DNA from: Eledone cirrhosa
Taxonomy: Eukaryota
Length of the DNA stretch: 64,000 bases
Reading direction: 5' to 3'
Assembly: GCA_964016885.1 (NCBI GenBank)
Contig: OZ024747.1
Coordinates: forward strand, 39,618,001-39,682,000
The translations under genes were made by a program, and so were the position numbers. Below the pieces are notes generated by a model. It saw only the letters and a list, made by a program, of their open reading frames with translations. It did no database searches and was not told the DNA's origin. Within the stretch, counting starts at the first letter, position 1. Every line of letters begins with the position of its first letter. Of this stretch, positions 55-63,696 are shown one piece after another.

Positions 55-1110
55 TGTGTGTGTGCATGAGTAAATGTATTTGTAAATCTGTCTTTCTGTT
101 CACTTGTTGAAACTACAATATTAAACTCATCAGTATATAGATTATACTTTTTTTTCTCTAATGTTAAATACTCATACATAAGTGTATTGAAGCAGACAAG
201 GAATGAGTCACTCCTGTATAGATATTGATCATTTTTGCATTGAAAATATACAATAAATTGAAGTAATTAATCGTTGATTTATAGAAAATCTTATTTATAT
301 TGTTGGTTTCCTTTGCAAAACTATACGCGGGGGAAGTTGCTAATTCTTGTACGTAAGAATTATTTCATTTTTGATGTATTTTATCCCCGTGTCAGTTCTA
401 CTCAAAATGAGGTATGATCAAAGCCGATCCAAATGTGAACATCAAATATTTATATATGTAGGTCCACATTGGGTAACATTTCCTTCCTTTTATAAAACGC
501 CACTATATGGTTTGAAGGACATTAGAATTTTAATTTACGCAGAACGACGAGAAATCATAGATTCCCTCTTTTTCTTGTTTATTACGTTAACATATTGTCT
601 CGTTTGATGCACATGTGCATATATATATGGCATGCGGGTTCCAGGTCTAAATATCTTTGATCGCCGAAAGATATAATCACCATCCATATTCATTTCGCGG
701 ATGACGCCATTCTTATGATGATATAGCCTGTTGGATAGAAATAGTAATTTTCTTATCTGATGTTGTGGAATAATCAAAGTAACACAGAGAACAATTGATC
801 AACACTGCAGGTGTTCAAAGGAAGCAGTGTGGTAGTAATAAAAGTAAATGTTATGGAAATGCATTTACTGTGCGAAAAAGGAAAATTATCAAGATTGTTG
901 GCTCAGATTATTTATCAGAATAGATAACAGACTGTATTCTACTGATTCTGGATTATACGTTACAAGCATACACCCTATAATATATGTGAGGTAGTACTGT
1001 ATTCCTGTGGCTTACACATACATATATATACTCACACACACACATATATGTATATATATATATATTAAAATACAAATATTAATAAAATAGATGTTCTTTT
1101 GATCAATTAC

Positions 1111-1163
1111 ATTTTATTATACATATTTCGGATGTACAACAGTACGTCCTCATCAGACAAAAT
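1111..1163 (-). ncRNA. Minimal type I hammerhead ribozyme
   Basis: Minus strand: ATTTTGT CTGATGA GGACGTAC-TGTT-GTACATCC GAAA TATGT ATA ATAAAAT. Confidence 0.85.
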
Positions 1164-3025
1164 ATAATGATATATGACATATATAGGATAAGATTTAATC
1201 AAGGTAGTGATTAACCTAAGAGAAAATTTAACATTTATACCCTAATAATGAGAAAATGCGAAAACGTAATAAATTCAATAGAGAATGTGTGAGTAAGAAA
1301 AACGTTGGTTAATGTGACAGCTATAGAGATTTTAAAATGTATGATACTACAAGTTATGTTTAACTAGGAAAACATCTCATGAATTATAACAGTCAATGAG
1401 AGCCACTGAAATAAGATTTATAGAGAGGGAAAGAGAAGGAGATTTTTTCCGAGAGTTAAACGGTTAAGTTTAAAAATACTTAATTTATGCTATTTTAGGG
1501 TGAAGAATCAAGATTTTAGGGTTTTTTTTTAAATTGCTGGTTATTTATATTTATTAGTTTTGTAAATTCTATAAGTGTGTTAACATTTCTAAACTTCTGA
1601 ATGTTATGAGGATAACATTTAAAGGATTTAGCTGGCCAGCGAAAAGGAAAGTTTACACTGTTGAATATTTTCCTAAATGTAAACTTTAACGAAGATAATC
1701 AATGTCAACATATTCAGTATGTTAAACTTATGAAGTACTTATTGTTAGAAATATTTAAATAAGGATTATGTATATAGAGATATATTAATGAGCCAGTATA
1801 TTTTAGGTAAATGATAACGAAAATAAAAATAAAATAATAGATTGAGGCATGCTAAAGTTAAATATATACCTATATATAACAGAGTGTAAATGCATTCATT
1901 ATTCATAGTTCAAAATAAATAATAATCACGAAATTTAGAAGTTAGCTAAAAATTATGTATAGAAAGATACAGGGAGGTATATATGGATATATATTAGGTA
2001 TTAGTGATAGAGTATACTTTAGGTAAATGATAACGGTTATAATTTTATATAATAAAATTCGACGTGTTACAGTTAAATACATACATATATATAAGAAAAA
2101 ACAATAATAAATGCATGGATAATTCAGAGTTCAAAATAAGGTCTATAATAATTTATATTTTGGATATTTCCTCTATATTTGAATCATGGATATAAAAATG
2201 CAGTAGGTATATTTAAAAACTTAGAATATATAATTACATACATATTATAAATAAGCGATCAAAAATGTAAACGCATGAAAGATTCACAGTTAGAAATAAG
2301 TTCCGTAAAAATGTATGGGTTGGATATTAAACTAAAATTTAAAACTTAGATAGGAAGATAAAGATAGAGAAATAAAGAAATAATGGTATGGATCAAAGTT
2401 AATAATATTATGTTATGTATATCAATGTCCCGGCGTGTTATTGAACAAGTGTCTTTCATAAGAGCGTTATTTCTTCTATAGATAGTTATAAGATAATGCA
2501 ATATTAAAGGCCATTAATGTTTTTCCCTGTTGATTATATACGTCTGACAACCAAGTTTTAATGGTTATACACCCTGTTTTATATATAGGTATATATTTAA
2601 CTTTATTTTCGTTATCATTTACCTAAAATAACTGGCTCATTAATATATATCTATATACATAATCCTTATTTAAATATTTCTAACAATAAGTACTTCATAA
2701 GCTTTACATACCGAATATGTTGACATCGATTACACTGGTCAACAAAAAAATATTCATTTCATGGTTCTGGTATAATTTAGTATGATTCTAGGGTAATCAA
2801 GTGTGCAGAATCTGAATATGACAACGGTTAAGCTGTATCGGGTTTAGTTTTCGAGAACCAGCATATCCATGTTTATGACCCATAGCTATGTGGCTCATAT
2901 TACTTCATCCAATTGTATCCACTATATTTAGTTGTTAACTAATTCATACTTACTGCTTTTGTTTCAGATCACAGAATTGTAACTATCCTCAGCTATTCTT
3001 GGATAATTCACAACAACTTTGACTA

Positions 3026-4349
3026 GTGGGAGAGATGGAACGCCGGAAATGTGTAAATGACTCGGACCGATTTTGCTATATTTGTGGACTCTTTACCCCA
3101 GAAAGCATAAAGAAACCAATCACAAAAGCAGTTCGAGTAAACTACAAATGCTACTTCAAATCTCCGTTAGGAGACCAGGACAATAAATGGGTGCCTCATA
3201 TAGCGTGTAGGTCATGTGTTAATCACCTAAGTGAATGGAAGAATGAGAAACGAAGCTCTGGTTTGCCATTTGCCGTACCAATGGTGTGGCGAGAACCAAA
3301 AGAACACGATAACGATTGCTACTTCTGCCATATAAACATCCAAGGAATAACTGTGAAGACACAAACTACACTTCAATACCCGATATCTCGTCAGCAATCC
3401 TGCTGAACACGAGCTAATCTCTGATTCTGATTCCAGTAGCACCCCTATTGATGATGACTATCAAGACGAACATAAGACAAGTGAACCCATACCATTTAAC
3501 CAGGAAACGCTTCACGATCTCATTAGAGACCTACATTTGTCTAAAGAAAAGGCAGAGCTCCTGGGATCAAGACTGAAGCAACGAAACCTGCTGGAACCTG
3601 GCGTCGGCATTACAACCGCTCGTCATCGTCATAAACAACTTAATTAGTCTACTTCTAGGTCTTCAGACTGGTTACACAAAGCATATGTGTTTTCTATGTT
3701 TGTGGAATAGTAGAGCAGATGCGGAGCACTACATGAAGAAGGATTGACCAACAAGACCAAAGGATGCACCCGGTAGATCCAACTGTCTGTACAAACCTCT
3801 TGTGGATCCAGAAAAAGTATTCCTCCCTCCATTACATCTCAAATTAGGCTTGGCCAAAAACTTTATTAAAAGCATGGATCATACGTGTAATGGGTTTCAG
3901 TACTTGTGTAAGAAATTGGGTAGAGTGGTATCTGAAGCAAAGTTAAAAGCAGGGTTTTTGAATGGTCCTCAGATTCGTATGCTGGTTAATGATGGTGAGT
4001 TTACGAAAATACTAAACCCTTTGGAGACTAATGCATGGAAATCATTTGTAGATGTGACACAGAACTTGGAAACCACCGTGCAGACAACTATAAAGAAATT
4101 GTTGAAACCATGATACAAAATTAGCGCGCTCTGGGTTCATGAATGTCGTTGAAGCTTCATTTCTTCCCAAGTAATCTAGGAGACATCAGTGATGAACATG
4201 GACAGAGGTTTCACCAGGACATTGCCATAATGGAGAGTAGGTATCAGGGTCGGTTCAATCCCAACATGATGGGCGACTACTGCTGGACACTGCAACGTGA
4301 GGAGAGCCAGCAAAACAAGCGTAAAAGCAAAATCCAGATATTTTTTTAG
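3026..4349 (+). pseudogene. Chapaev3 transposase, frameshifted and internally deleted
   Basis: Chapa-domain motifs FCYICG, LGDQDNKWVPHIAC, PMVWREPKEHDNDCYFC; later LPPLHLKLGL and SDEHGQRFHQDI. Confidence 0.88.
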
Positions 4350-4819
4350 AAATGTTTTGAAATATTTTCTTGTGTTCAGAATGTTGTTCAGAAATGTTTT
4401 GTTAATATACTAAGTGTTAAAAAAATAAATAAAAATATGTTTATATATCCAAAATTAAATTAAGGGTTGTCATGTCTGAGAGACATGCGCCATATCCACT
4501 ATGAGTAAGCTCAAAGATTCCAATGAATAGATCCGAGCATTTCATATCAACGAGAAATAGATTGACATATATATATATAAAATAAACATATGGAACAATC
4601 ACAGGGAATAATTTGCAAAGTATGTAAGCACACATAGCTAGGTAGGTAACCAGTTTAACTAGAACTTCAAATATAGATACCTTTTAAAATGATTAATCTC
4701 CTTTGTATATATTTCTATGGGATGACGCTGTGCGATGTGTGTATTTTTTAAAAATGCAACACGTGGTTCGAGTCATTCACAGATTTGCATTTGCTTTGTA
4801 AACGCAGATAGTTGGATCT

Positions 4820-4913
4820 TCTCCTTTGGTGACCATCCAGGATTTGACTACTATGATTTATTGATTAATTGGTGAAATATATTTTTTATTTAAAGAAATA
4901 TATACAAAGGAGA
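4820..4913 (+). ncRNA. Putative hammerhead, G3:C8 core variant (copy 1)
   Basis: TCTCCTTTG GTGACCA ... GAAA TAT ATA CAAAGGAGA; perfect 9-bp stem I; stem II weak. Confidence 0.55.
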
Positions 4914-5031
4914 ATAATCATTTTAAAAGGTATCTATATTTGAAGTTCTAGTTAAACTTTAACTGGTTACCTACCTAGCTATGTGTGCTTACATACTTTA
5001 CAAAGTATTCCCTGTGATTGTTCCATATGTT

Positions 5032-5072
<41 letters not shown>

Positions 5073-5381: not shown

Positions 5382-5475
5382 TCTCCTTTGGTGACCATCA
5401 AGGATTTGACTACTGTGATTTACTAATTAATTGGTGAAATATATTTTTTATTTAAAGAAATATATACAAAGGAGA
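5382..5475 (+). ncRNA. Putative hammerhead, G3:C8 core variant (copy 2)
   Basis: Same motif 562 nt downstream. Confidence 0.55.
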
Positions 5476-6392
5476 TTAATCATGTTAAAAGGTATTTATA
5501 TTTAAGTTCTAGTTAAACTTTAATTGGTTACCTACCTAGCTATGTGTGCTTACATACTTTACAAATTATTCCCTGTGATTGTTCCATATGTGTATTTTAT
5601 AAAAATATGTTTATATATTTTTATTAATAAGTTAATATGTTTATATCTAAGTCATCATATGTTACACAATGGATAAATAATGAAATACGAGGAATATATT
5701 TTCGATCTCATATTAAGGCATTCTGGTCCGATAGCAAAAAATGAATATTAAAACTGAATTTAGTGCTATGAAATTAGTAAGATGCACATATTCACATGTA
5801 AGAACCATTTTGGTTGTTGACCAGTGTTATCTTCGTTAAAGTTTACATTTTGGAAAATATTCAACAGTGTAAACTTTCCTTTTCGCTGGCCAGCTAAATC
5901 CTTTAAATGTTATCCTCATAAAATTCAGAAGTTTAGAAATGTTAACACACTTATAGAATTTACAAAACTAATAAATATAAATAACCAGCAATTTTAAAAA
6001 AAACCTAAAATCTTGATTCTTCACTCTAAAATAGCATAAATTAAGTATTTTCAAACTTACCCGTTTAACTTTCGGAAAAAATCTCCTTCTGCATATATTA
6101 CCCCCCTTATCTTTCCCTCTCTATAAATCTTATTTCAGTGGCTCTCATTGACTGTTATAATTCATGAGATGTTTTCCTAGTTAAACATAACTTGTAGTAT
6201 CATACATATTAAAATCTCTATAGCTGTCACATTAACCAACGTTTTTCTTACTCACACATTCTCTATTGAATTTATTACGTTTTCGCATTTTCTCATTATT
6301 AGGGTATAAATGTTAAATTTTCTCTTAGGTTAATCACTACCTTGATTAAATATTAACCATTTAACATCTCAGGGTATGTCATGTATCATTAT

Positions 6393-6445
6393 ATTTTGTC
6401 TGATGAGGACGTACTGGTGTACATCCGAAATATGTATAATAAAAT
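6393..6445 (+). ncRNA. Minimal type I hammerhead ribozyme
   Basis: ATTTTGT CTGATGA GGACGTAC TGGT GTACATCC GAAA TATGT ATA ATAAAAT. Confidence 0.85.
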
Positions 6446-6656
6446 GTAAGTGATCAAAAGAACATCTATTTTATTAATATTTGTATTTTAATATTAATAA
6501 CTCTGGAAAATTATTCACCGTAGAGTGCTTCTAATCTACTGTAAAACTCATTCTTTGATATACTCATTTAATCTTGTTTAACTATTTAATATATGTATAT
6601 ATATATATATATGAAAAAGAACACAAGAGCGTCTACAACATCAAAAGATTTTTATT

Positions 6657-6713
6657 GGCTTACAATGTTTCTTCCTTACGTAACCGTAGGATTCGTCAGA
6701 GCTATAAAAGGGG
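6657..6713 (-). ncRNA. Hammerhead ribozyme
   Basis: Minus strand: GCT CTGACGA ATCCTACG GTTA CGTAAGGAA GAAAC ATT GTA AGC. Confidence 0.7.
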
Positions 6714-7202: not shown

Positions 7203-7267
7203 TATTTTGTCTGATGAAGGCATACCATAATTTAATATGGTATCCCTGAAATATGTATAATGAAATA
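7203..7267 (+). ncRNA. Minimal hammerhead in a fold-back repeat (inverted partial copy at ~7060-7155)
   Basis: TATTTTGT CTGATGA AGGCATACCATA ATTTAA TATGGTATCCCT GAAA TATGT ATA ATGAAATA; relatives at 38493 and 49410. Confidence 0.85.
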
Positions 7268-7384: not shown

Positions 7385-7543
7385 CAATAAAGAGAGATAA
7401 ACACAGATATATAAATATATGCGTTCAAATCACGGGAAAAAAAACGCCAGGTTGAGGTAAATATTGACTAAAGATAATACGGTTCGCAAGACTCAATGAA
7501 CAGGATAAATTAAGATTTACAAACCGATTATGATAACTATCAA

Positions 7544-7619
7544 CATCCAGACAGCTTTGGGTAGAACTGTTTCGCAATTCTGTGGAGGGGTTTAGAGATC
7601 CAATGGTCTTCAGTGGATG
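7544..7619 (-). ncRNA. Type I hammerhead with looped stem III
   Basis: Minus strand: CATCCA CTGAAGA ... GAAACAG TTCTACCCAAAG CTGTC TGGATG; 6-bp stem I, GUC triplet; stem II decayed. Confidence 0.72.
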
Positions 7620-7805
7620 TTCGGATCAGTAATCACCCCACTACTAATTTCATTAGAATGCGCATTTGTTAAGAGAGAGGAATCGCACATGGCACCGCGT
7701 ACTAAAACATTGCACCCATGTCCATTCAACATATTAAAGGCTCAACAGTGGGTTATGAGTTCAATTTATCAAAAGTATATATTGACTTCTTTAAACTCAA
7801 TATAT

Positions 7806-8291: not shown

Positions 8292-8350
8292 ATTTTATTA
8301 TACATATTTCAAAGGTACAATGGTGTTTCAGTACGTTTTCATCAGATAAA
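8292..8350 (-). ncRNA. Minimal hammerhead (same family as 6393)
   Basis: Minus strand: TTTAT CTGATGA AAACGTAC...GTACCTTT GAAA TATGT ATA ATAAA. Confidence 0.75.
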
Positions 8351-11351: not shown

Positions 11352-11531
11352 TCTCTCTCTATATATATACATTTTTATATAAATGTAAGCGTATATATAT
11401 ATATATATATATATAACACCAACAGTTTTGCAAGAGATCTCAACATGAATGGACCTATTATTTTTATCTAAAGACATTTTTTTCCAATTCCATCCCGCCC
11501 GTCCCCTCAATCTATCTTATTTCTCATTCTT

Positions 11532-11566
11532 TCTTCTGATGAAGGACTAGCGTCCGAAACGTTACT
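11532..11566 (+). ncRNA. Minimal hammerhead in a pLTR-like repeat (11420-11655) upstream of the PLE ORF
   Basis: TCTT CTGATGA A GGAC TAGC GTCC GAAAC GTT; stem I partner mutated; inverted relative at 32081-32310. Confidence 0.7.
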
Positions 11567-11742
11567 ATCCTCTTCCTGCTATATCAAGCGTTAACCTAAT
11601 ATATACCTTCCATATACTGTAACGATTGTGTTGTTATTTATGTTTACCTTTTACATACACACCCATACTCCCTCGTAAATACCTAATTAAAGAAATTGCA
11701 GGAGAGTCACAAGAAGAAACAAAACTCTGACGGGAACTTACA

Positions 11743-14700
11743 TTGAAAAAATTCAGGACCAACATCTCCATTACTCAATGTAAACAATCCCGCTACAAAG
11801 CCAAATATGAAGCTATCGATGACCAAATTGAAGTAGAAATTTCAAAGCTAACGACTGATATTATAGCTGAAAAACTACGAGAACTATGGATCAGAGATAT
11901 CTCAAAAGAAGAAAGCAAATCAAGAAAGTTATGGCAGCAGAAACAATTATTTCTCGACGAATATGCTGCAAATTACGGTAAAGACTCTGGAACTCTGAGA
12001 AAAAGCATGAAAAGTGGACAATCTCGCCAACACAATATACGCCAGAACACGAGGCAACACAAACACTCATCTCACCTTGAATCAAAGAAGTACTACGGTA
12101 AGAACTCTTCGCTTTTTCTAGAAAAACACCCTAACGCACACAACATGAATAAAAAGCACAAACACGATAGATATTCCTTTGACCAGACCATGGGAAGTAG
12201 AAAAACCAGGAGATTATTCTCAAGATCTCAAGAGAGACTACCCACAAGTAATGGGGAAAAACCGTAGAATAACCAGATCACTTTCAAGGTCTCAACAGAG
12301 ATTACCCACAAGAAACTGGGGGGAAAATGATCTAAACCTGAAAGCAAACCTGGGTCATTTTCCCAAATTGTTAAAAATAATGCCAACAAGAAATGGAAAA
12401 ATAATATAAATAATATACATAATACCAAAAATAGGACTAAAAACATAACGAAACTAAGTATAATATCACGACCAAAAGTTCATCAAGCAAACACCAACAG
12501 GAATATAAATCCTGAACAGAGAAAAATCCCTTTTTTTACGTCAGGACAACAAAAACCGGAAAAAGAAAAACTCCAGGAGGAATCATATCCAAAACAATTG
12601 AACAGGTAGATCCTAAAATAATTAATTTATCCAAAAGAGATCTTGACAATGATGAAATGCAAATTCTGTCAAAAGGACTGAAATTCACGCCGACTCCAGC
12701 AGTCAACCACCAAGAACTAAAGGAGGATACCCAAGAATTCTGTCGTAAATTACGACTTGTAGAATTCTTCGCTGATAAAGGTAATGAGAGAGATGAATCA
12801 CTAGTAAAGAATAAATATAATTTCACTCCGCCAAAAGCAAGAAATATTATCTCGACCAATACATTGATATCCTGTCTAAATTTCCTCTTAGACGTAATAC
12901 TAATGTTAGGCCTAACATTAACAAATCGGAAATGTCTGCACTTAAACGTATACAAAATAATAAAACAATAATAATTAAACAAGCAGATAAAGGGGGTGTA
13001 ATTGTTATAATGAATGCTGAATACTACAAAGATTTGGTTGAGGAACAACTGAAAGACACAACATTCTACCATGAAATACCGTCAAATATAGACCACAACA
13101 TCATGAAGAAGATCAAAACCTGGCTTCAAAATACTACAACTCACTTACTGATGATGAAAGAGACTACATCACCAATTTTGAGCCAAAACCCAGCAACTTT
13201 TATGGTTTACCAAAAATTCATAAGTCAAAAGAAATCCAACTGGCAGTAAAAGAACAAAAACGTGAGTACATTAAATTACTACACCCAAAAGACTTAAAAC
13301 CTAGACCTATTATAGCTGGTCCAACATGCCCTACCCACCGTCTAAGCAATTTTGTTGACATTAATTTGAAACCACTATGTATTCACATACCCAATTTCAT
13401 CCGGAATGATATCGATTTCCTGTCCCATCTTCCCAAATCCACGGAAACGAATTCACTTCTACTTAATGTTGATGTGGTAAGCCTTTACACCAACATTACA
13501 CATGATTTAGGAATAAAGGCGGTTAAATACTGGGTGGAAAAACATAGAGAAGTGATTCCCACCAGATTCACAGTGCCATTTATATCAGACTTATTCTGGA
13601 AAACAACACGTACATCCAAATTAGAGGCACACGATGGGACGAAGTTTGCTCCCGTTTACGCGAACTCTGTAAAGGGATACTTAGAACAACAACTCTACCA
13701 AGAAATAGAGGGAAAATATAGTACTGAATTTAGAAAGTACATTGGAAGAGATACATTGGCGACTGTTTTATCATCTGGACAGAATCTCTAGATACTCTGG
13801 ATGAGTTCAATATCCTCCTAAGTAGCCTACGCCCATCTCTCCAATTTACGAAAGAAATGACTAGAACCAAATTACCATTCCTGGATATAATGGTAATCAA
13901 AAACGACACCACCATTACCACGGATATATACTATAAACACACAGACACCCATCAATATCTGAATTTTAAGTTGTGCCATCCACTTCATACAAAACGCAAC
14001 ATCCCATGCTGCCTAGCCAGAAGAATGTGCACCATTGTAGAAGATACGAATACCAGGAACAAACGCCTAGCAGAACTGAGAGAATTTTTGCTTAAACAAA
14101 AATACCCATCTCTACTTATAGAAAATGGCATACAGCGGGTTATAAAAATACCTATACAACAATTTAGGACAACCCAAGGAAGAAGAAACCAAGAACTGGT
14201 CATACCATTTATAATGACACACAACCCATGTCACCAGAATATCTTCAACACTGCCAACGCAAACCTACCGATCATTGCTCAAAGTAATGACTTAAAAGGT
14301 TTAATCACAGACCGAGCTTTGATTCTTAGTTAAAGACAGCCGGAAAATTTGAAGCAATTACTAACAAAGGCAAAGTTTGACCTTAACAACAAAGTTCAAT
14401 CATTCACTGTATCTAAATGCAATGATAGTCGATGTGGCACATGTCAGTTCATACAAACTGGTCAATATATGAACACAAAAACTGGAAAAATATTCCCAAA
14501 TGCAAATATGATCTGCAAAAGCAGAAATCTAATTTACTGCATTAAATACCCGAATTGTGAAGAACTATATGTCGGTCAAACTGGAAATACACTATCGGAA
14601 CGTGCACGGTTGCACCGACGGCAAATCAGAGACCCAAATGTCCGTCAGATACCCCTGAGTAACCATCTAGCAACATGTGGTTAGAAAATATTTATAATAT

Positions 14701-14780
14701 TTCCATTCTACAAACTACACATCCCAAGTGAAATCAAGAGAAAATAATTTTATTGATAAATTCTAACCCAAGCTAAATGA
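11743..14780 (+). pseudogene. Penelope-like retroelement ORF (RT + GIY-YIG), Neptune-like, frameshifted
   Basis: LSKGLKFTPTP, IKQADKGG, FYGLPKIHK, DVVSLYTNI, WKRYIGDCF (YxDD decayed), LPFLDI, Cys linker CNDSRCGTC, NLIYCI...YVGQT. Confidence 0.9.
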
Positions 14781-15196
14781 ACAATATCATGCTTAGGGGT
14801 ATTACTTCTACTATGACTACGCCTACGACCATATCGACTACCACCACTAACAACAACAACAATAATAATAATAATAATAATAAAAGTGATGTTGATGTTG
14901 ATGATTACTGAAGATTTTTCATAAAAACCCTAGACAATACTATTTTCATCATTTCTAAAAATAGCAAAACAATTGATGCTTTGGATAGGGTCAAATAGAA
15001 GTACTTAGACATGCTCAACCAACCGTGACGCCTAAACCTAGCAGCTTTAGTAATCTAGTGAACCCACACACCAATTGGTGGAAATACAGTTTGCAAAACT
15101 TAGCATTTTGTAGCCCCTTTTTACTGTATATAAGGCACATATTTTAGCCATCTCATTGCAGTTGAAAATTGCAAACTTGTCTGTTACCACTGAATA

Positions 15197-15235
15197 TGAA
15201 CCTGAAGATTGCGAAAGCATGAAAGTACTTGTTCA
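15197..15235 (+). ncRNA. Minimal hammerhead in the 3' pLTR of the PLE
   Basis: TGAAC CTGAAGA TTGC GAAA GCAT GAA AGTACT T GTTCA; palindromic stem III. Confidence 0.75.
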
Positions 15236-15509
15236 ATCAACATTTAACATTTAATATTCTACCATACTATTTCATTATAATATCATTATCATTTTAAAGG
15301 ATTGTAAATAAAACGAGCAAATCAGACAAACTTGGAATTCCTTTTATCAATATATATATATAAGTATGTATGTATGTATACGTACATACATATATGTATA
15401 CAGACGTACAGTAGTATGTATATGTATACACACATGCACACATATATATATGCACGTATCGGTTTACCGAACATTTATTATAATGCTCGGTTTGTTTGTT
15501 TGTAAACAA

Positions 15510-21177: not shown

Positions 21178-21697
21178 ATAATAATAAATTTGAAGACTAA
21201 AATCCAAAGAGGGCTCGATAAGGATAAATAAATATCAAATATATAAGTACCGTAGAGCAAATATTTATTAAAATAATAGATTAAAGTTTAAGCAAAGAAT
21301 CGCTGCTTTCACCCTTAACGGGATCTTCTGAAACTAAAAAAGTCAATCTGGGAACGCATAAGTAAATATTTCAAAAAAACGTTGCAACCGGAGGAAGACA
21401 GGAAGACGATACTTGGTTCGTTGAAACGTTCCCTGACAAAGAACGGAAAAAAAAACGAAGATAATATGTCATTATTTGGAGCGGGGAAAAAAATTACACG
21501 CAAAGAAAAAACTACGTTTATGGTATAAATGAAGTCGTAGACTAATATTCTATTAGGCGGTTCATGGAGACGTTCTCTGGCAATGAACGGAAAAAACGAA
21601 GATAATACGTCATTATGTGGAACAATGAGAACAATTGCACACAAAGACAAAACCACGTAAAAAGACCTTTGTTTTTTCCGTTCATTGCCAGAGAACG

Positions 21698-22263: not shown

Positions 22264-22587
22264 TATATGCATGAATGTATGTATATATTTATATATTTGT
22301 TTTGCAAACATTACAATACAACGGGAGGAAACATTATATTACCCCTGATGTTATCACAGATGTGTGACAAAAGAACTTTGATAGACTATATATATTCATA
22401 TCTGTATTTCTAACAGTTGGTCAATCAATGACGAATTAACTACTGAGATATAAAAGATACAGAGCGAAAACCAATCCCAACCAAACAGTGAGTGTGTTTT
22501 ATTATTATTTCTGGCAATATTATAACAATATGACACTCCCCAAATATAAAAATATATATATATATATATAACGGCGATGAATTAGTT

Positions 22588-23121
22588 TTGCGAGGTTTTT
22601 TATATGAAATCGTGTGTCGAAACTTAAAAATTAAGGTGGTAGAAAAGCCAGGAACCACCATAAAATCCCTGATCAGCAAAATCTACCCTTTTAAGAAAAC
22701 CCACTGTACCAATAGGAAATGTATCATATGTAAGATAAACCCCCGAATAAACTGTAAAACTAGAAACGTAGTCTATAGCATAAGATGTACAGAGGGTACT
22801 TGCAGAAACATGACAACAGCATACATAGGTGAGACAGCTCGTAGCATAGGTGAAAGGATAGACCAACACTGGGGGGAACTAAAAGGACGGAAAAACGGGT
22901 CAGTACTATACGAACATGCTAGACAACAACATGACGGTGACATAGACAACATAGAAATTAGAATATTATCTAAACATAGAAATGACCCAGCAGATAGACA
23001 AATCAGAGAGGCCAGTGAAATAGAAATTAGAAGACCAAGACTATACAGAAAGAATGAATGGAATAACAACAACACCCAAACAAACAACACTGACCTAAGA
23101 GAAGTATCAATAAGTAAATAA
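22588..23121 (+). pseudogene. GIY-YIG endonuclease of a PLE (Naiad-like), 5' truncated
   Basis: KVVEKPG...C..C..C...C..RNVVYSIRC..C...YIGETARSIGERI.QH; direct repeats at 22440-22550 and 23490-23605. Confidence 0.85.
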
Positions 23122-23354: not shown

Positions 23355-23398
23355 CACCACTGACGATGTTGCAGATGTGCAACGAAAGGTTTATGATA
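23355..23398 (+). ncRNA. Minimal hammerhead downstream of the GIY-YIG ORF
   Basis: CTGACGA T GTTGCA GATG TGCAAC GAAA GGT TTA TGA. Confidence 0.7.
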
Positions 23399-23639: not shown

Positions 23640-24039
23640 TTAAAAAATAATGAATAAAACAATGAAACAGTTCCTTATATTAAACAAAAAAAGTTCATTA
23701 TTTAACGATCGTTTCTAGGACATATATGTGTTAGAATTGGCATGCATATTCAAAAGATCTATGTACAAAATTATACAAAATTATACAAACTATCAAATAG
23801 AATATACATACCAACACATACATATGCCGATTTCTGAAGACGGCATATGTATGTGTTGGTATGTATATTCTATTTGATAGTTTGTATAATTTTGTATAAT
23901 TTTGTACATAGATCTTTTGAATATGCATGCCAATTCTAACACATATATGTCCTAGAAACGATCGTTAAATAATGAACTTTTTTTGTTTAATATAAGGAAC
24001 TGTTTCATTGTTTTATTCATTATTTTTTTAATATTTTAT
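23631..24039. repeat. Near-perfect palindrome, 199-bp arms, 11-nt loop
   Basis: 23631-23829 is the reverse complement of 23841-24039; loop ATTTCTGAAGA. Confidence 0.92.
23830..23970 (+). ncRNA. Hammerhead with ~114-nt stem II region
   Basis: ATTT CTGAAGA CGGCATATGTATGTGTT...AACACATATATGTCCTA GAA ACGATCGT T AAAT. Confidence 0.75.
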
Positions 24040-28140: not shown

Positions 28141-28279
28141 CGCTTTTTCTAACCACAGTATATATAGTGTATTTTGCAATACACTGTATGCTTAATTAAA
28201 AGCATTTTGAAGACCATACGCTATTGTTTTAAAGTAGCGACATTGTCGCTTACTTAAATTTTCGGCAGGCAGGGAGAGA

Positions 28280-28326
28280 TAAGTTGACAGCGCTGTTTCG
28301 TACTCTTTGGTACATGTCAATACTCA
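28280..28326 (-). ncRNA. U3:A8 hammerhead (inverted copy, A9 mutated)
   Basis: Minus strand: TTGACAT GTAC CAAAGA GTAC GAA ACAGCGCTGT C AACTTA. Confidence 0.7.
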
Positions 28327-28553
28327 GTACTCTCCCCGTTTTCAAAATGCTTTTAATTAAGCATAGTGTATTGCAAAATTGGTGCTCTGAAATAGCGATA
28401 TACATTCATATATATATCGCTATTTGAGAGCACCAATTCTAATTTTCAATTTCTGCTGGGCCGGCGACCGCTCTGTAAAATCAGTTCCTGATTGATACTG
28501 GAATTCTATAAGAATCCAACACATCATTTTCGGCAGACGTGTTTTCGGCAGAC

Positions 28554-28600
28554 TGAGTTTTGACAATTACCAATTAGTACGAAACAGCGCTGTCAACTTA
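28554..28600 (+). ncRNA. U3:A8 hammerhead
   Basis: TGAGTT TTGACAA TTAC CAATTA GTAC GAA ACAGCGCTGT C AACTTA. Confidence 0.78.
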
Positions 28601-30785: not shown

Positions 30786-30889
30786 CAATTTCTGCTGGAC
30801 CGGCGACCGCTCTGTAAAATCAGTTCCTGATTGTTACTGGAATTCTATAAGAATCCAACAGACATCATTTTCGGCAGACGGGAGAGTAC

Positions 30890-30936
30890 TGAGTTTTGAC
30901 AAGTACCAATTAGTACGAAACAGCGTTGTCAACTTA
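30890..30936 (+). ncRNA. U3:A8 hammerhead (best-preserved copy)
   Basis: TGAGTT TTGACAA GTAC CAATTA GTAC GAAAC AGCGTT GTC AACTTA. Confidence 0.82.
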
Positions 30937-31049
30937 GCTCCCCCTGTCTGCCGAAAGTTTAAGTAAGCGACAATGTCGCTACTTTAAAACAATAGCGTAT
31001 GGTCTTCAAAATGCTTTTAATTAAGCATAGAGTGTATTGCAAAATACAC

Positions 31050-31415: not shown

Positions 31416-31785
31416 TATTATATATTATATATTATTATTACTATTTTATAGGGCGGTGGATTGGCAGTATCGGTAGATATTATCTTTTATTGTCTCCTAC
31501 TCTCATTCGATTTATCTATTCTATAACCTCCCTCCCCCACTTCATACACTATCTTTAGAATCTGCTGTATACATGCCACTTTCAACGCTTGACCGCTCCA
31601 CTCAAACCTTTATTGTTTTACAAGCAAGTTCAGCCACCCTTACCTCCCACCAAATGCCATGATAGACTTATTTGTGTTTACAACAAATTTTAACCAATCC
31701 TCTTGACAACTACAATCTTCAAATATAAGGAAGTACCCCCCTTGACAAGTTCGCTATTTATTCACCAGGCTAAAAATTCTAATTT

Positions 31786-32023
<238 letters not shown>

Positions 32024-32169
32024 TAAAATAACAGATTAAAGTTTAAACAAAGAATCGCTGCTTTCCCTCTTATCGGGATCTTGTAAAAGGTAAACGGAAA
32101 TAACAACACAATCGGTACAGTATATGGAAGATATATATTAGGTTAAAGCTTGATATAGCAGAAAGGGGG

Positions 32170-32205
32170 CCTTAACGTTTCGGACGCTAATCTTTCATCA
32201 GAAGA
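32170..32205 (-). ncRNA. Minimal hammerhead (11532 family)
   Basis: Minus strand: TCTT CTGATGA AAGATTAGCGTCC GAAAC GTT AAGG. Confidence 0.7.
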
Positions 32206-37990: not shown

Positions 37991-38371
37991 GTAAAAGGAA
38001 AAGAAAATGCTGACAAATTGTTCCCAGTGAAAAATAGTTTAATTAGGAATAAGTAAAAATTAGTAATAATTATTGGTTAGTATTCAGTTTTAGTTTTAAG
38101 ATTTTACCTGTTGCGCATTTATAATGCTTTTCAAAAATAATTTTGAGATAGAGTACTCGTGATGTTTGCTCTAATCTGATTAGAGCAAACATCACGGGCG
38201 CTCTATCTCAAAATTATTTTTGAAAAGCATTAGAAATGCGCAACCGGTAAAATCTTAAAACTAAAACTGAATACTAACCAATACTTATTAGTAATTTTTA
38301 CTTATTCCTAATTAAACTATTTTTAACTGGGAACAATTTGTCAGCATTTTCTTTTCCTTTTACCAATATAT
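37983..38371. repeat. Palindrome, ~194-bp arms centred at 38177
   Basis: CTAATC T GATTAG centre; arms differ at several positions; preceded by (TA)n. Confidence 0.9.
38216..38253 (+). ncRNA. U3:A8 hammerhead-like motif with GCAA in place of GAAA (mirror at 38101-38138)
   Basis: ATTT TTGAAAA GCATT AGA AATGC GCA ACCGGT A AAAT. Confidence 0.6.
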
Positions 38372-38492: not shown

Positions 38493-38558
38493 TATTTTGT
38501 CTGAAGAAGGCATAACATATTGCTAATATGATATCCCTGAAATATATATAATGAAATA
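38493..38558 (+). ncRNA. Minimal hammerhead (7203 family)
   Basis: TATTTTGT CTGAAGA AGGCATAACATAT...ATATGATATCCCT GAAA TATAT ATA ATGAAATA. Confidence 0.8.
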
Positions 38559-44397: not shown

Positions 44398-44400
<3 letters not shown>

Positions 44401-44594
44401 GAAAATGTTCAAGACCCTGACGGCAGAGCTCAAGCCGTTTCGACAGCTATTTCTGTCCAGAAATAGCCATCGAAACTGTTTGAACTCTGCCGTCGGGGTC
44501 TTGAACATTTTCCTATTACCCACTCTACTACGCTATGTATTAAGTACTCTGGTGCGTTATGGTCCACCTGATTCATTACCACACTTCCTTCGTT
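44398..44594 (+). repeat. Hairpin-headed ~195-bp element
   Basis: Diverged copy of the 45147 element. Confidence 0.8.
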
Positions 44595-44600
44595 ATATAT

Positions 44601-45016
44601 ATGTAAGTATGTATGTATGTATACGTACATACATATATGTATATAGACGTACAGTAGTATATATATACTTACATGCACACATATACATATGCACGTATCG
44701 GTTTACCGAACATTTATTATAATGCTCGGTTTGTTTGTTTGTAAACAAACAAACAGCCGAATTACGCCGTACAGTGTTTAGGCAACCACGTCACCTTTTT
44801 GTTCAACACTGACACAGGAACAATGTACTAGCTTCAAGCTTATTAGCTATCGTCAGTATCGCATACCTTCCTGCCAGATGGTTGAACGTCTGAAAGTATA
44901 TACTTTCCTTATGCATATTAACGGTAGAGCAGCCTAATTTGCATATATATATATACATACTACTGTACGTCTGTATACATATATGTATGTACGTATACAT
45001 ACATACATACTTACAT
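44601..45016. mobile_element. MITE-like element with ~75-bp TIRs
   Basis: 44601-44677 inverted at 44940-45016; partial copy at 15361-15510. Confidence 0.65.
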
Positions 45017-45094
45017 TTAAGAAAGTGCCGTACTAAGTGCCGTTCTAAGTGCCGTACTAAGAGTGAGAAACGAAATTTCGTTTCATTCTATTCC

Positions 45095-45146
<52 letters not shown>

Positions 45147-45151
<5 letters not shown>

Positions 45152-45338
45152 AACAAGTAAGACCCCGACGGCTGAGCTCAAGCCGTTTCGACGGCTAGTT
45201 CTGTACAGAATTAGCCGTCGAAACGGCTTGAGCTCAGCCGTCGGGGTCTTACTTGTTCCTATTACCCACTCTACTACCCTAAGTATTGAGTACTTTGGTG
45301 CGTTATGGTCCACCTGGTTCCTTACCACATTTCCTTCG

Positions 45339-45340
<2 letters not shown>
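45147..45340 (+). repeat. Hairpin-headed ~195-bp element in (TA)n
   Basis: 58-bp arms 45147-45204 and 45205-45262 plus a unique tail. Confidence 0.85.
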
Positions 45341-45387
<47 letters not shown>

Positions 45388-45819
45388 GGGGGGGGGGTGT
45401 TATAGTGTACCTATATAAGCTTTTTGTGAACAGAAGAATACAAGTACTTGCTTACTGTCATGTAATATTCATAAGCAATAACTTAAAAATAATTGCAGAA
45501 TAATATGTAAATCTCCTTATAGTGTTGGAAAGAGGCGTCTAAATATTAAATTTATATTATAATTTATAAGTTGTGTAGTGCATAAATATGTATTATCTAA
45601 TTAATTACACCAATACTAATGCATATTCAGAGCGAAAGTTTTGGTTCTCCCTCCTTTTCCCTCTCTCTCGTATATGTTTATGTGGGTACGTGCATACCTG
45701 TATGAGGATAGAGTAAAATACAGACAGAGAAACAGATTAAAAGAGAAAACTTGACAAATACGTGCATTGTGGAATTCAGTATATATATATACACAAGCAC
45801 GTATGCATAAATATGTATG

Positions 45820-45870
<51 letters not shown>

Positions 45871-45889
45871 ATATATATATATATATATA

Positions 45890-46084
45890 TAACGAAGGAA
45901 ATGTGGTAAGGAACCAGATGGACCATAACGCACTAAAGTACTCAATACTTAGAGTAGTAGAGTGGGTAATAGGAACGAGTAGGGCCCCGACGGCTGAGCT
46001 CAAGCCGTTTCGACGGCTAATTCAGTCCAGAATGAGCCGTCGAAACGCCTTGAGCTCAGCCGTCGGGGTCCTACTCGTTCCTAT
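45890..46084 (-). repeat. Hairpin-headed ~195-bp element, inverted
   Basis: Reverse complement of the 45147 element. Confidence 0.85.
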
Positions 46085-46085
46085 G

Positions 46086-47112: not shown

Positions 47113-47200
47113 ACCTCTACCATGGTTTCGTCCGTGTTTTGAGTTATCCAATAATTATGTAATAATTATATAAACTCGAGCGCCGGATTTTTCAGGAAGC
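47113..47200 (-). ncRNA. Hammerhead of the 659-nt unit (G8A)
   Basis: Minus strand: GCTTC CTGAAAA ATCCG...CGGAC GAA ACCATGGT A GAGGT. Confidence 0.75.
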
Positions 47201-48104: not shown

Positions 48105-48192
48105 GCTTCCTGAAGAATCCGGCGCTCGAGTTTATATAATCATTACATAATTATTGGATAACTCAAAACACGGACGAAACCATGGTAGATGT
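48105..48192 (+). ncRNA. Hammerhead of the 659-nt unit (intact core)
   Basis: GCTTC CTGAAGA ATCCG...GAGTT...AACTC...CGGAC GAA ACCATGGT A GATGT. Confidence 0.85.
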
Positions 48193-48764: not shown

Positions 48765-48852
48765 GCTTCCTAAAGAATCCGGCGCTCGAGTTTATATAAT
48801 TATTACATAATTATTGGATAACTCAAAACACGGACGAAACCATGGTAGAGGT
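48765..48852 (+). ncRNA. Hammerhead of the 659-nt unit (G5A)
   Basis: GCTTC CTAAAGA ATCCG...CGGAC GAA ACCATGGT A GAGGT. Confidence 0.75.
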
Positions 48853-49270: not shown

Positions 49271-49409
49271 GAGGTTATATTTAATTTGTTGGGATTACTC
49301 TTACTCACTCATAAATTTGTATCACCCTCAATAAATGTACTATCTCCACTATCCAGGATGGTTGTCTTTTTTCCGGGTATGTCAATATTTATTTATAAAG
49401 CAAATCTGT

Positions 49410-49483
49410 ATTTTATCTGATGAAAGCTCACCATAATTTGCATTGGTTGCCCTTGAAATATGTATAAATATGTATAATAAAAT
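49410..49483 (+). ncRNA. Hammerhead (7203 family), degraded
   Basis: ATTTTAT CTGATGA AAG...CTT GAAA TATGTATA, with the stem III region duplicated. Confidence 0.6.
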
Positions 49484-49530
49484 AAATGTGGTTTTATAAA
49501 TATAGTTTCCATTTATTAATATATTGTATA

Positions 49531-50358: not shown

Positions 50359-50864
50359 CAATCACATCAAGTCTGTGGACGACACAGCAAAAACACAAAC
50401 AAGCATACAGAATGACCAAAGAATTACAAGAAATAAACCCGTTATAAACAAAAGCAAAATTAACGGATATAAATAAAGAAATATATCCCCATATACACGA
50501 TCACACATATACACACATATACACACACGTGCATAAAAGGCCTACGCACACACACTCTCTAACATATAGAAATTGTACATATACATACATATACATAAAG
50601 ACATCCTCACACACACACACGCAGATATGCATATATACACACATGCATACACACACACACGCACACACACACACACACACACAGCTTTAGCTTTAATTGT
50701 CTGCACAATTTAGTGCGTTCGTACCCGCTACCAGTTTATGGTGAGATAATATACAGACGAAATGTTGCTGTCTCAAGAAATCACGATAGCTATCGTCATG
50801 GAAATACGTATAACGGCTCAATTAATAAAGGAACCTAACATCTTCAACTTCGCATGATCCTCTT

Positions 50865-60100: not shown

Positions 60101-60743
60101 GGAGGGTGCCCAAGATCAAAGCTTATTGACTCGTAATTACCAGGCCAATGTGATGAGAAACGGAATAAACCCAAAGTGCCGATTCTGCAATGCTGGGGCT
60201 GAAACAGTGGATCACTTAGTCTCTGGATGTAAAGTTTTAGCACTAGTAGAATACAAATATAGACATGACAGAGTTGGCCAATATCTACACTGGGTAATAT
60301 GTCGGCATTACAAAATCAAAGCTGAAGACAAGTGGTACAATCATCGCCCTGAGGCTGTAACTGAAGGAGAAAAAGTAACAATTCTCTGGGACTTTCCTGT
60401 ACATACTGACAGGACCATCAAAGCAAATAGACCTGACATCATTATAAAAGTTCAACATAACAAGGTCTGTTTATTGATAGATATGAGCACCCCAGGTGAT
60501 CACAATATCGCGGCAAATGAATATGACAAGCTACGAAAATATAAAGATCTGCTTATTAAAATTGAGAAAATGTTGCACCTCAAGGCCGTTACAATGCCAG
60601 TGATTGTAGGAGGACTGGGAATGATCAAGAAAGGAACAGAACAATATTTGCGAATCATTCCTGGTTTACCCTCTCTGCACGAGGTGCAAAAAATTGTTTT
60701 GACTGGTACTGCACACGTATTGAGAAGAGCACTATCTCTGTAA
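57150..60743 (+). pseudogene. R4/Dong-clade LINE 3, near full length, degraded
   Basis: RMKWTREE N-terminus, DYKKAFD, YMDD, CRFC..ETVDHL, RHD, NRPDII. Confidence 0.88.
57865..57969 (-). mobile_element. SINE (Nin-like) inserted in LINE 3
   Basis: 13-bp target duplication GAAAACAAATAAT at 57852 and 57970. Confidence 0.88.
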
Positions 60744-61061: not shown

Positions 61062-62037
61062 TGCATATATACATCTATATATATTGCGGTGAAGATAGAT
61101 GTACATGTTTACATGCATTGATTGAAACTATACACAGGATTGTTTATTGAATTATGATCAACAATAATGTGCCCATGACCTATATTGAATTCGAAGGACG
61201 TGTTTTCTTATTCTCATTATTGAATATGTGATCTGGCGGCAATTCATACATTGTAGAAAGATAATAGTTACTGAGCTAATTCCCTATACGAAAGTAAGTT
61301 AAACAGTTTTCCCACGAATGCCAATAAATTGCAGAACATTTTTCATTTCGAAATACATAAATACATACACTTAAAATGTCCACATTTTAATTATTCCAGC
61401 AAAATTGTGTGATAATTTCAGGAAACTCAAATTTAGTAACTCTCTGTCTTCTAAACACTAGGGAATAAGATATTGATATATTGATTTAAGTTTGTAGATC
61501 GACTCATATTTACAATTAATTAAGAAAATTAATTTTGACTCATAAAGAATAAAATTATGATAGGAATAGAAACCAATAGTCTTCCATGTGACCTGATTTC
61601 TACTGGTCTCACTAGAACCGAAAATGTTTTCAGTTATGAAGTATTTTTGTATTAAATTTTGATTGCATGTTTTCTTTGATACAAGACGTAGGTTTTTTTT
61701 CAGTTGGATGTCGGTTTATGCACCCAAGAAACCAATAAACAGATCTAGTTGCCACCACTGCAGCTCAAATGCTGAAATTTGAAAATAAGTGTACTATGAA
61801 GAGTCTCTCATGATAGATACATGGGAAAAAAAGGAATAAATATTTCGAAAATAGCAAAAGAGCTCCTCGTTAGTTTGGTCTAAAGAAAATCATGTTTACA
61901 TTGGACATTCCATTAGTGATATATTTTGCTGCTAGCAGTGTTAAACGTGCATTATTGTATAGATCCATGAAGGTAATACATACAAATATCCCTCTTTATG
62001 TCTTTTTCTCCCTATCTTTATGTTCAAATCTTTTTAT

Positions 62038-62084
62038 TGCTGACAATCGTTTCATCCAATCTTTCGTTTGGAATCATCGGAGCA
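62038..62084 (-). ncRNA. Minimal hammerhead (U4C)
   Basis: Minus strand: TGCT CCGATGA TTCCAAAC GAAA GATTGGAT GAAAC GATT GTC AGCA. Confidence 0.7.
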
Positions 62085-63649
62085 TTAGCAATGTTTGTAC
62101 AACTCGCACCTCCACTCTTTCAAAAATCACAATCTAGCCAGCACCACTTCTTTATCTAGCTAAATACACTCTCTGAAAACTAGGAATAGACCATATACAC
62201 TGCAATGGGAAGTACTAGGTAGGGCCGCATCGTATAAACCACCGAATAAATTGTGTAAACTCTGTCTTCTAGAGACCCGTACTATAATCTTTTAGAATCC
62301 TAAATAGAAAATCATAGGTGTTTTCCTCTTGCCAGCACCACTACCGACACTCGTTCCATAACTTTAAACCTAGCTGCTAGTATATAACAATGTCAGATTT
62401 GAATACCCCACCACCATTAACACTTCACCTCTAGGAGTTATCAGCCCCCACAGCATCACAATCTTTGATCTACAAAACTCCTATTTATCTCAAACCTTTT
62501 ACACTACAATAACTATTAGAAATAAAAATAAAGTTACCACCTTTTAATATAACTACTATAGGTTACTTATATTATATACAGTAATGGATATATAATATGT
62601 AGAGACATTTAATGTAATATGTGATAATAAATTATATATACATTTATAATTAAATATATGAATTAATATCATTTAATATAAAGGATTAACTTTTAACATA
62701 ATATAATGTATATTATTAACGCAAGAGATTTAACTAATTGGACCTGTAAACAGCTATACATTTTTTCCATAACTTATATCTTGTCCAGTAATGGATAGAT
62801 AACTATGTAATGAGACCTTTAATGCATTATAGGTAAATAGACTGTATTTAAAATTAAATATAAATAAATAACATTATATATAAGGAATTCATTAGAAACA
62901 CAATAAAATGTATATTAGAGCAAAGAATCTAAATAATTGTTACTTTGCTATATAATTTAATTTAATTTAATTAGCTAGTTACCTCACCTTACGCATTAGC
63001 TCCCCTTAATGTTGGATCTCATACTCACTTCCGGAAATTAAACCGATAGAAAAAATTGTTGTAGAACAACTCTAATCCAGCGATAAGAATACAATAAGAC
63101 CAATTTACAATGCATTGCTATAACTAACTAAAATCATTCAATATAAACATTAACTAAAATATAATTTAACATAAGTAATGGAAAAGATAACAATAACTTT
63201 GATAATCTCAGCACATACACATTTGAAAACTACAGAAACAATCATCACATAAATTTTAATACACTAACACCTTTACTTGGTATGCTTGTATACCTGTGTT
63301 ATTTTATGTCATACATTTGCCATACAGTATTTATTTATGACTAATACCTTTGCTTGCTTCCTTCATATATAAGACTAACGCATGTGCACTCTCTATACGC
63401 TTGCATATGTACTGCTAGTGTCCTCATTCTTCCTCAATGCCTCTTTAACTATCTGACTATTTTCTTGTATTATCTGTTGCATGTATTCCAGTCTGTGCTT
63501 TTAATTTTAATTTGAATCATTGTACAATTCTCGTATAATATATGTCGCATCCATTCTACCCTGTAAATACGAAACTGTTGTTCACAACATCAATATATAT
63601 GTATCTATATGATTGTTCAGTTGAATAGGAGGTTAATTATATGTACAAA

Positions 63650-63696
63650 CATTGATGATTCCAAACGAAAGTTTGGAAGAAACGATCGTCAGCAAT
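63650..63696 (+). ncRNA. Minimal hammerhead, stem I 5' strand deleted
   Basis: TGATGA TTCCAAAC GAAA GTTTGGAA GAA ACGATCGT C AGCA. Confidence 0.72.

Follow-up and report, generated by a model that had tools for sequence, protein, structure and literature searches.

What kind of element has scattered hammerhead motifs (HHRs) over a single stretch of a cephalopod genome? The stretch, referred to here as the window, comprises 64,000 nucleotides (nt) of Eledone cirrhosa (GenBank assembly GCA_964016885.1, contig OZ024747.1, positions 39,618,001 to 39,682,000 of the forward strand), and it belongs to a contig of 94 Mb; the assembly measures 3.0 Gb and is rich in (TA)n. A first-pass annotation had counted about 28 HHRs from over a dozen families in it. 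Our final list, which bears out this count, holds 31 whole type I HHRs in 18 families, spanning positions 1106 to 63694, two of which (called 7613 and 50772) are doubtful. In all likelihood, these motifs lie in the 3' pseudo-long terminal repeats (pLTRs) of many families of Penelope-like elements (PLEs), mostly protein-coding, whose copies sit 5'-truncated and partly inverted in (TA)n, and a minority of short tandem units is likely carried by the same enzymes. This reading draws directly on the structure of the motifs, their covariation, the conservation of their cores, fixed 3' ends at (TA)n, and nine families tied to open reading frames (ORFs) for reverse transcriptase (RT) and GIY-YIG endonuclease.

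A scanner was written for type I HHRs that accepts a core with any Watson-Crick 3:8 pair and scores stems I to III, with local dinucleotide shuffles as the baseline. In the window, the strict descriptor scan gave 6 matches against 0.05 and the loose one 10 against 0.15 (40 shuffles each), and the scored scan for exact cores gave 13 against 0.75 at scores of at least 18 and 9 against 0 at scores of at least 24 (12 shuffles). The HHR density is thus far above that of shuffled sequence, the control by which the first-pass annotation had proposed to judge its count. In a random sample of the genome (sixty evenly spaced 10-kb stretches, 600 kb, from 18 large contigs), 104 exact-core matches were found at scores of at least 20, compared with 7.8 in shuffles, and 40 of the 60 stretches were positive. 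A scan for long stems II (60-175 nt) gave one match in the window, and seven in the sample against none in three shuffles. The final list combines the scans with BLAST searches using intact copies from other genomic loci and with reading of the sequence; repeats within the window were found by masked self-BLAST. In nineteen of the 31, the core is standard or has a Watson-Crick 3:8 pair, and the CUGANGA/GAAA/UH consensus comes with three stems and an open stem I (one of the nineteen is without stem I); three carry a family-fixed variant, and nine are decayed. Besides these, about eight half-motifs lie in inverted arms of the window.

Could the motifs be chance hairpins in AT-rich, repeat-rich DNA? 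When one core mismatch is allowed, matches scoring at least 16 in the sample are no better than background (107 against 88.6 in shuffles). No hammerhead was among the matches listed by an Rfam scan of the window (best 150 of 192), which included microsatellite-driven miRNA matches, and at gathering score Rfam found none in five loci with clear motifs. Moreover, 7613 (7542..7621, reverse strand, a long stem III) and 50772 (50767..50817, forward strand, G5 changed) had homologues in none of the loci compared from beyond the window, and folding of 7613 gave no HHR structure. Against chance stand the exact-core excess in the sample (104 versus 7.8), reversed-pattern controls, which were zero for each of the 11 patterns counted in the genome, covariation, and variation specific to N7. 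We consider this explanation refuted to within a very small residual chance, save for 7613 and 50772. The expectation that most non-coding inverted or tandem repeats contain an HHR is borne out in part by the 31 motifs; not every inverted repeat bears one, because none was found in the SINE-like (short interspersed element-like) repeats (the 17983 family and 40191/50241) or in the inverted repeat at 9558-10469. Scanner matches at 34138 and within the ORFs of long interspersed elements (LINEs) and Gypsy elements (26682, 51088, 52127, 52731 and 54503) were discarded as likely chance, and a seeming CUGACGA at 63692 on the reverse strand is a palindromic stem III read as its reverse complement.

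The motifs also bear the marks of selection on structure. For core conservation, copies of 15 families were gathered by BLAST rather than by core descriptor, and loci fetched with the same family were left out. At the 11 invariant core positions, only 32 of 2003 cells (1.6%) differed from the commonest letter of their column, in comparison with 34 of 182 (18.7%) at the free N7 position and 497 of 10,060 (4.9%) in the flanks; p-values are nominal here, as the copies are related. When 20 sequences of the A-superfamily and its relatives were aligned, 89.5% of cells were paired and 14 of 22 pairs showed two-sided change; both the share of paired cells and the covariation score exceeded those of all 500 shuffles, and sliding the partners destroyed the pairing. 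The 3:8 pair of family B covaries as well (G-C 86, C-G 9, U-A 1 and mismatched 4, counted by eye in the first 100 of 148 matches). Stems thus covary and cores are conserved while N7 varies, as in type I HHRs.

What, then, carries the motifs? Nine of the 18 window families (16 motifs) are the 3' ends of protein-coding PLEs, some of Hydra type, others of Neptune type or of a third clade, and all nine show the arrangement of endonuclease-positive (EN+) PLEs, i.e., RT, then a C-terminal GIY-YIG domain, and an HHR in the downstream pLTR. The first-pass suggestion that PLEs move the motifs into (TA)n is upheld. ORF linkage came from genome searches with two endonuclease domains and from fetching of widely spaced motif pairs; the 49,430 and 29,061 candidates of the protein searches are not copy numbers. 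Pfam gave nothing in the PLE fragments of the window, whose identity came from homologues.

The Hydra-type elements have units of 3.3-3.9 kb and long, AT-rich 3' untranslated regions (UTRs) of about 1-1.8 kb, because of which 5'-truncated copies look non-coding. Indeed, A1, A2, D and U4A were at one point taken as non-coding elements, which was rejected when ORFs were found 1-1.8 kb upstream. Family A1 has two intact motifs, one at 1106..1168 (-) within an inverted 3' end (1065-2566) and one at 6389..6449 (+) in a forward 3' end (5815-6491), where (+) and (-) denote the forward and reverse strands. It lies behind a Hydra-type ORF across a 1.5-kb AT-rich UTR, and its sequence runs straight on from the ORF over about 1.3 kb in six loci (L141, L154, L158, L160, L162 and L170). 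Family A2, which is intact at 7203..7267 (+), a Hydra-type 3' end, and at 38493..38558 (+), and has a small stem III duplication at 49409..49484 (+), flanks Hydra-type frames of up to 821 amino acids (aa) together with a sister family (pLTR-ORF-pLTR units L223 and L224). Clear ORF matches were seen in 11 of 12 stretches of the U4A family, one of which is a complete pLTR-ORF-pLTR of 3.3 kb (L211); in the window, this family is represented by an HHR-like motif with the family-fixed U4A at 21285..21335 (-), also a Hydra-type 3' end, and by a decayed end at 32020..32088 (-), recognized by self-BLAST and sequence reading. Family D (31738..31830 (+), Hydra-type 3' end, U3-A8 core, long stems II and III) had clear ORF matches in seven of eight stretches. 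The long-stem-II family, whose 114-nt stem II at 23830..23970 (+) forms the centre of the palindrome 23633-24037 at another Hydra-type 3' end, had ORF matches in five of six. A Hydra-type GIY-YIG C-terminus remains at 62095..62374 (+) (tblastn E 3e-8), beside a decayed HHR with a changed U4 (62035..62087 (-)); the latter is an inverted copy, and the forward copy of the same family, also decayed and missing the 5' strand of stem I, lies at 63652..63694 (+) (self-BLAST and sequence reading). Across six Hydra-type ORFs, the CxCX5C motif was present in all six, CxxC..E in four, and DKT in two, the others being mostly 5'-truncated. In a tree of 15 proteins, which has three deep groups, long branches and no named references, the five Hydra-type ORFs included form one long-branched group (100/100) without a named Hydra reference; the Hydra label is putative and rests on the motifs listed in PMC8557442.

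A decayed Neptune-type PLE occupies 11660..15347 (+), with RT and GIY-YIG pieces at 12537-14787, and carries the minimal HHR 15202 (15197..15235 (+)) in its 3' pLTR. This element has intact relatives elsewhere, with many open 775-aa copies in 4.2-kb tandems. Open frames among the PLE copies range over 775-821 aa. The A13C family, HHR-like with U3-A8 and a family-fixed A13C (38216..38253 (+) in the pLTR and 38101..38138 (-) in an inverted arm), flanks a 4.8-kb Neptune-type element (unit L243), with ORF matches in seven of eight stretches and body identities of 89-98%. The CX2-5CxxC linker and DKG were found in the L179 ORF; the A13C family has DKG too, and its linker can be seen in the L237 and L245 frames. 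By these motifs, the elements may be of the Neptune or the Nematis clade. The third clade is represented by a decayed HHR with a broken core (22340..22395 (+)), a P0032-like GIY-YIG fragment (22558..23061 (+)), and, 299 nt behind this fragment, HHR 23360 with a weak stem I (23358..23395 (+)). In addition, the A13C element (L243 and L247) has a 455-aa frame upstream of its RT-endonuclease frame, possibly a separate ORF1, with weak similarity to window positions 11659-12024 (E 8e-12).

Three further families (T, E and B; six motifs) are short non-coding tandem units of retrozyme type, with HHRs in consecutive units. T has 420-540-nt units in arrays of five to six or more (longest stop-free frame 53 aa), E a 659-nt unit (50 aa), and B a unit of about 550 nt (73 aa); further tandem spacings of 310, 562 and 592 nt were seen. 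In the window, T appears as a decayed copy with A15.1 changed (44811..44871 (-)). E has an inverted copy with G8 changed (47113..47200 (-)) in the element 46845-49222, an intact core at 48105..48192 (+), and a second tandem unit with G5 changed at 48765..48852 (+). B, in the element 4449-5597, has two tandem copies at 4819..4914 (+) (G3-C8 core, 59-nt stem II region) and 5382..5475 (+). In L237, a family-E copy has a Neptune-type ORF in its vicinity; this ORF was set aside, since it belongs to an A13C element with (TA)n in between. The first-pass annotation had described the whole as a non-autonomous system and proposed to link each family to a PLE ORF. Its first part fits the six motifs of T, E and B and fails for the 16 that end coding PLEs; the linkage succeeded for nine of 18 families, the rest being T, E and B and six families placed neither as ORF-linked nor as tandem (A3, C, F, 6699, 7613 and 50772).

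That description can be pressed further, the bulk of the motifs then being non-autonomous retrozymes that parasitise a few coding PLEs. T, with 23,743 exact genome-wide matches in its arrays, is abundant enough to invite this, and E, B and the additional spacings point the same way. A PLE ORF lies within 1.5 kb upstream of only 12 of the 104 sample matches (and downstream of none), and the 12 stretches of family F cease to share sequence about 150 nt upstream of the core. However, ORF linkage holds for the largest groups examined (A-superfamily, 67,255 exact matches; U4A, 18,366; A13C, 10,213; long-stem-II, 7,421), E and B have only 273 and 148, and of the 104 sample matches, 43 belong to ORF-linked families, 15 to short tandem ones and 46 to neither. 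The non-autonomous class is therefore real, but a minority among the assigned matches; as an account of the bulk it is improbable, and for the assigned families largely refuted.

The coding-PLE reading also accounts for where and how the copies sit. A (TA)4 tract lies within 350 nt downstream of 25 of the 31 window motifs versus 31% of control positions, and in the sample 68 of 99 matches are followed by (TA)6 within 200 nt, versus 22% of controls (34% upstream), in agreement with the suspected preference for (TA)n. The shared layout that had been noticed, (TA)n, an inverted partial copy, one or more forward copies and (TA)n, was found at five window loci (4449-5597, 46845-49222, 1065-6491, 37989-38365 and 23633-24037), and the same terminal base precedes (TA)n in most of the 20 loci of family E. 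PLE insertions are described as partial tandems with an inverted 5'-truncated copy, made by a GIY-YIG nuclease that cuts AT-rich DNA and an RT that starts inside the pLTR RNA (PMC8557442, PMC11167929); partial tandems, inverted 5'-truncated copies and a (TA)n target are what we see. Following this published work, the PLE endonuclease would nick (TA)n, and reverse transcription would begin near the 3' end of the pLTR and copy the hammerhead first. Copying would often stop or fold back, leaving one or two hammerheads per insertion, facing outward if two, and seldom the ORF; each insertion would deposit a hammerhead because no more than a few hundred bases separate the HHR from the 3' end. As for T, E and B, their own hammerheads may, along the published retrozyme route, cut transcripts to unit length, giving circles from which tandem arrays could be copied in trans; a search for RNA records carrying family E listed none. 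Family D illustrates truncation within the motif, with 26 3' halves versus three whole motifs in the sample and both truncation and fold-back in the stem II loop. It occurs mostly as short 3' ends with a fold-back palindrome (18 of the 60 random stretches), which makes the inside of this ribozyme a strong truncation hotspot; three such palindromes in the window (44399-44593, 45150-45339 and 45892-46081, together 44399..46081) hold 3' halves only, without CUGANGA.

Several observations weigh against the coding-PLE reading. The ORF-bearing stretches were picked as widely spaced pairs and therefore show that coding copies exist, not what share they make up, and six window families and 46 of the 104 sample matches fall in neither class. 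No short unit of T, E or B matched the pLTR of any particular coding PLE among the loci compared, because of which we infer mobilisation in trans rather than observe it. The covariation alignment consists of related, hand-picked sequences from which the structure itself was derived. Finally, the minimum-energy monomer fold of single U4A, A13C, E and 15202 motifs is not an HHR.

How large is the system? Exact-core density in the sample is 115-210 per Mb net of shuffles (bootstrap), and under this rule the window has 17 matches. For one pattern that was counted both ways, 21 were found against 13.5 expected; because the sample thus appears to run high, the genome total is estimated at 0.3-0.5 million HHRs (range 0.2-0.6 million). 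Schistosoma may reach a similar hammerhead density. Smaller exact genome counts are those of F (2,953), D (1,915) and C (19). Seven patterns spanning both core halves sum to 124,464 exact matches, 93,970 of them with a standard or U3-A8 core. Candidates from the DNA searches (E 2356, B 1696, U4A 783) are not copy numbers, the exact figures being 273, 148 and 18,366. The 104 sample matches form 37-43 clusters, mostly singletons, and with stems II of 12 to 114 nt and C-G, U-A or G-C as the 3:8 pair, there are dozens of HHR architectures. Hydra-type PLEs are massively amplified in this genome, which is novel according to the searches made.

Not all of the amplified cores are standard. Genome-wide, 18,366 exact matches of the U4A family have A, compared with 181 having C, G or T. 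In the A13C family, C stands in 98 of the first 100 of 10,213 matches; there are two subfamilies, with pLTRs about 77-85% identical, and GAAA is retained in a sister family. For family D, counting by eye in the first 100 of 1,915 matches gave about 44 with a C3·A8 mismatch and none with C3-G8. None of these three families has the strict core; by position they are homologous to standard HHRs, and A13C is also 83% identical to its GAAA sister. Fixed core changes occur in three of nine coding families and in none of three tandem ones, though the T pattern itself required a standard core. That core changes (U4A, A13C and C3·A8) are confined to coding PLEs, while T, E and B have a paired core, is suggestive only. 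In classical mutagenesis, changes of A13 and U4 strongly reduce HHR activity. The U4A and A13C changes are predicted to weaken or stop cutting. Both positions belong to the strict HHR core, with a viable U4C viroid variant noted, in the passages of PMC3088659, which make no mention of a natural A13C. In the hammerhead of a PLE, single 3:8 mismatches abolish cleavage, G3-C8 partly restores it, and HHR mutants leave insertion in vitro unaffected (PMC11167929). Three coding lineages were amplified with broken-looking cores and three tandem families kept a paired core, from which it would follow that coding PLEs can spread where cleavage is inefficient; the fixed core changes would be the genomic counterpart to the reported dispensability in vitro (PMC11167929). 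General purifying selection on the cores, coding families included, speaks to the contrary and argues that cleavage may matter over the long run.

The variant cores might instead be functional hammerheads rescued by tertiary contacts or a PLE protein, and they would then be uninformative on dispensability. Where A13C copies share 80-92% identity with the window copy, differences affect one of 198 core cells against 13% of flank cells, a weak point since it is essentially one subfamily comparison. The corresponding U4A figures were left aside, being biased by the way in which those loci had been fetched. Because the motif is conserved while its flanks diverge, it may act as a structure or be protein-assisted, which goes against a simple reading of it as dead. 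Contigs of three runs of unrecorded kind, aligned to 37990-38365, list no other letter at the A13C position; they may include the source sample and are therefore not independent support. Natural core variants with residual activity, including the viroid U4C (PMC3088659), and an Anolis PLE hammerhead that cleaves only with protein (PMC11167929) make such rescue conceivable. Yet A13 belongs to the strict consensus (PMC3088659) and is unchanged in 182 of 182 cells of the 15 other families, and a 3:8 mismatch of the kind that abolishes PLE hammerhead cleavage (PMC11167929) occurs in about 44 of the first 100 family D matches. Rescue is a serious possibility, if on balance not the one we favour.

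Our most far-reaching proposal is put forward with a similar degree of reserve, tentatively: a burst of Hydra- and Neptune-type PLEs may have produced the largest hammerhead load found on record (0.3-0.5 million, against the highest published count that we found, 126,247 in axolotl), in which coding PLEs would spread with dead HHRs (A13C, U4A and C3·A8) and retrozymes keep working cores. If so, cleavage would be needed by the parasite, the retrozyme, and not by the PLE. The hammerhead's role for PLEs is called "still unclear" in PMC8557442, and young high-copy families with fixed core changes beside standard-core sisters in one genome are natural test pairs for it.

Much of the system is already known, namely PLE hammerheads, their family diversity, the layout, TA targeting and retrozymes. 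In the parts of Cervera and de la Pena (2014, PMC4209133) consulted, the minimal type I HHRs of PLEs likewise comprise many families per genome, with long stems II, an extra base after A9, palindromic stems III, the U3-A8 variant, opposite-strand pairs and mostly truncated PLEs. Their counts are about 2,000 plus 1,300 in Schistosoma, 4,000 in coelacanth and 9,000 in Xenopus, compared with at least 124,000 exact matches here, and the present genome further differs in that stem II reaches 114 nt and that G3-C8, U4A, A13C and C3·A8 cores are fixed. The Hydra clade, as described in passages of Craig et al. (2021, PMC8557442), shares the C-terminal GIY-YIG domain, the CxCX5C linker, DKT, CxxC and CxH around E/N, a canonical HHR, and (TA)n insertion, the layout and TA bias being the PLE insertion pattern published there. 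That clade is given as generally under 3 kb, with 21 Repbase families and a few more, whereas the Hydra-type units here are 3.3-3.9 kb with 1-1.8-kb 3' UTRs, in at least five lineages, several with tens of thousands of copies. Neptune-type PLEs of the same source share CX2-5CxxC before GIY-YIG, DKG, tandem units and an HHR near the 3' end; the difference is a 4.8-kb family with an upstream 455-aa frame that bears A13C. Metazoan non-LTR retrozymes (PMC7229834; bioRxiv 10.64898/2026.07.22.740005) are described as tandem arrays that co-occur with PLEs; their units are non-coding, low in GC and a few hundred bases long, and each has a single type I HHR. The likeness is limited to a minority here (T, E and B), which has inverted 5' parts and (TA)n flanks in addition. 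The Anolis element PAc, a Poseidon PLE (Frangieh et al., 2024, PMC11167929), shares the HHR in the pLTR, the AT-rich target and a "tail" extension, seen here in U4A copies; there, engineered core mutants left in vitro insertion unaffected, and in the present genome it is natural changes of the core that have become fixed, in families that were amplified. No paper on inactive PLE ribozymes was found in our literature search. For cephalopod PLE hammerheads, no account was found in the texts read beyond PMC8557442 and the giant squid genome paper (235 Rfam Hammerhead_1 matches), in a literature of mostly open-access main texts whose supplements might contain PLE families of octopus or the variants seen here; the first-pass impression that this density was undescribed is in keeping with this. 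What is novel per the literature searched is the scale and the coding PLE families with fixed core changes. Since the system itself is known, the genome therefore offers scale and test material, not a new kind of element. In it, the little-known Hydra clade stands out as a major constituent of an animal genome of 3 Gb, and the HHR architectures it offers went unreported in the two Rfam scans.

The remaining motifs belong to families in neither class. A3, of the A-superfamily, is intact at 8294..8350 (-). Family C has a decayed inverted copy at 28271..28335 (-) and two U3-A8 motifs at 28554..28600 (+) and 30889..30937 (+). Family F includes 11536 (11521..11578 (+)), with an intact core and stem I lost in this copy, and a minimal HHR at 32170..32205 (-). 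Motif 6699 (6658..6702 (-)) has an intact core and one homologue in the sample.

Other repeats surround the motifs. The A1 element has received, along with the family-B element, a piece at 2733-4440 whose decayed ORF pieces (3023-3406 and 3748-4113) contain a PPLHLKLG motif and have no Pfam match; we take it to be probably a DNA transposon. A Gypsy-like LTR retroelement with zinc knuckle, protease-like, RT/RNase H-like and integrase frames lies at 24682-28112, and several decayed LINEs with RVT_1 and zf-RVT matches at 28740-30780 and 50956-60743. Two SINE-like repeats are abundant, one at 17983-19907, 31293, 49531, 57858 and 63881 and the other at 40191 and 50241; the one of about 181 nt also occurs elsewhere in tandem and within PLE 3' UTRs. 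The inverted repeat at 9558-10469, with about 390 nt per arm, lies between microsatellites and had no homologue among the loci compared. A 37-nt minisatellite at 39387-39626 (6.5 copies, 98% identical) is also present in L150. Beside a family-F copy, L260:1527-3200 contains helicase frames with Pif1-type motifs that we assume to be Helitron-like.

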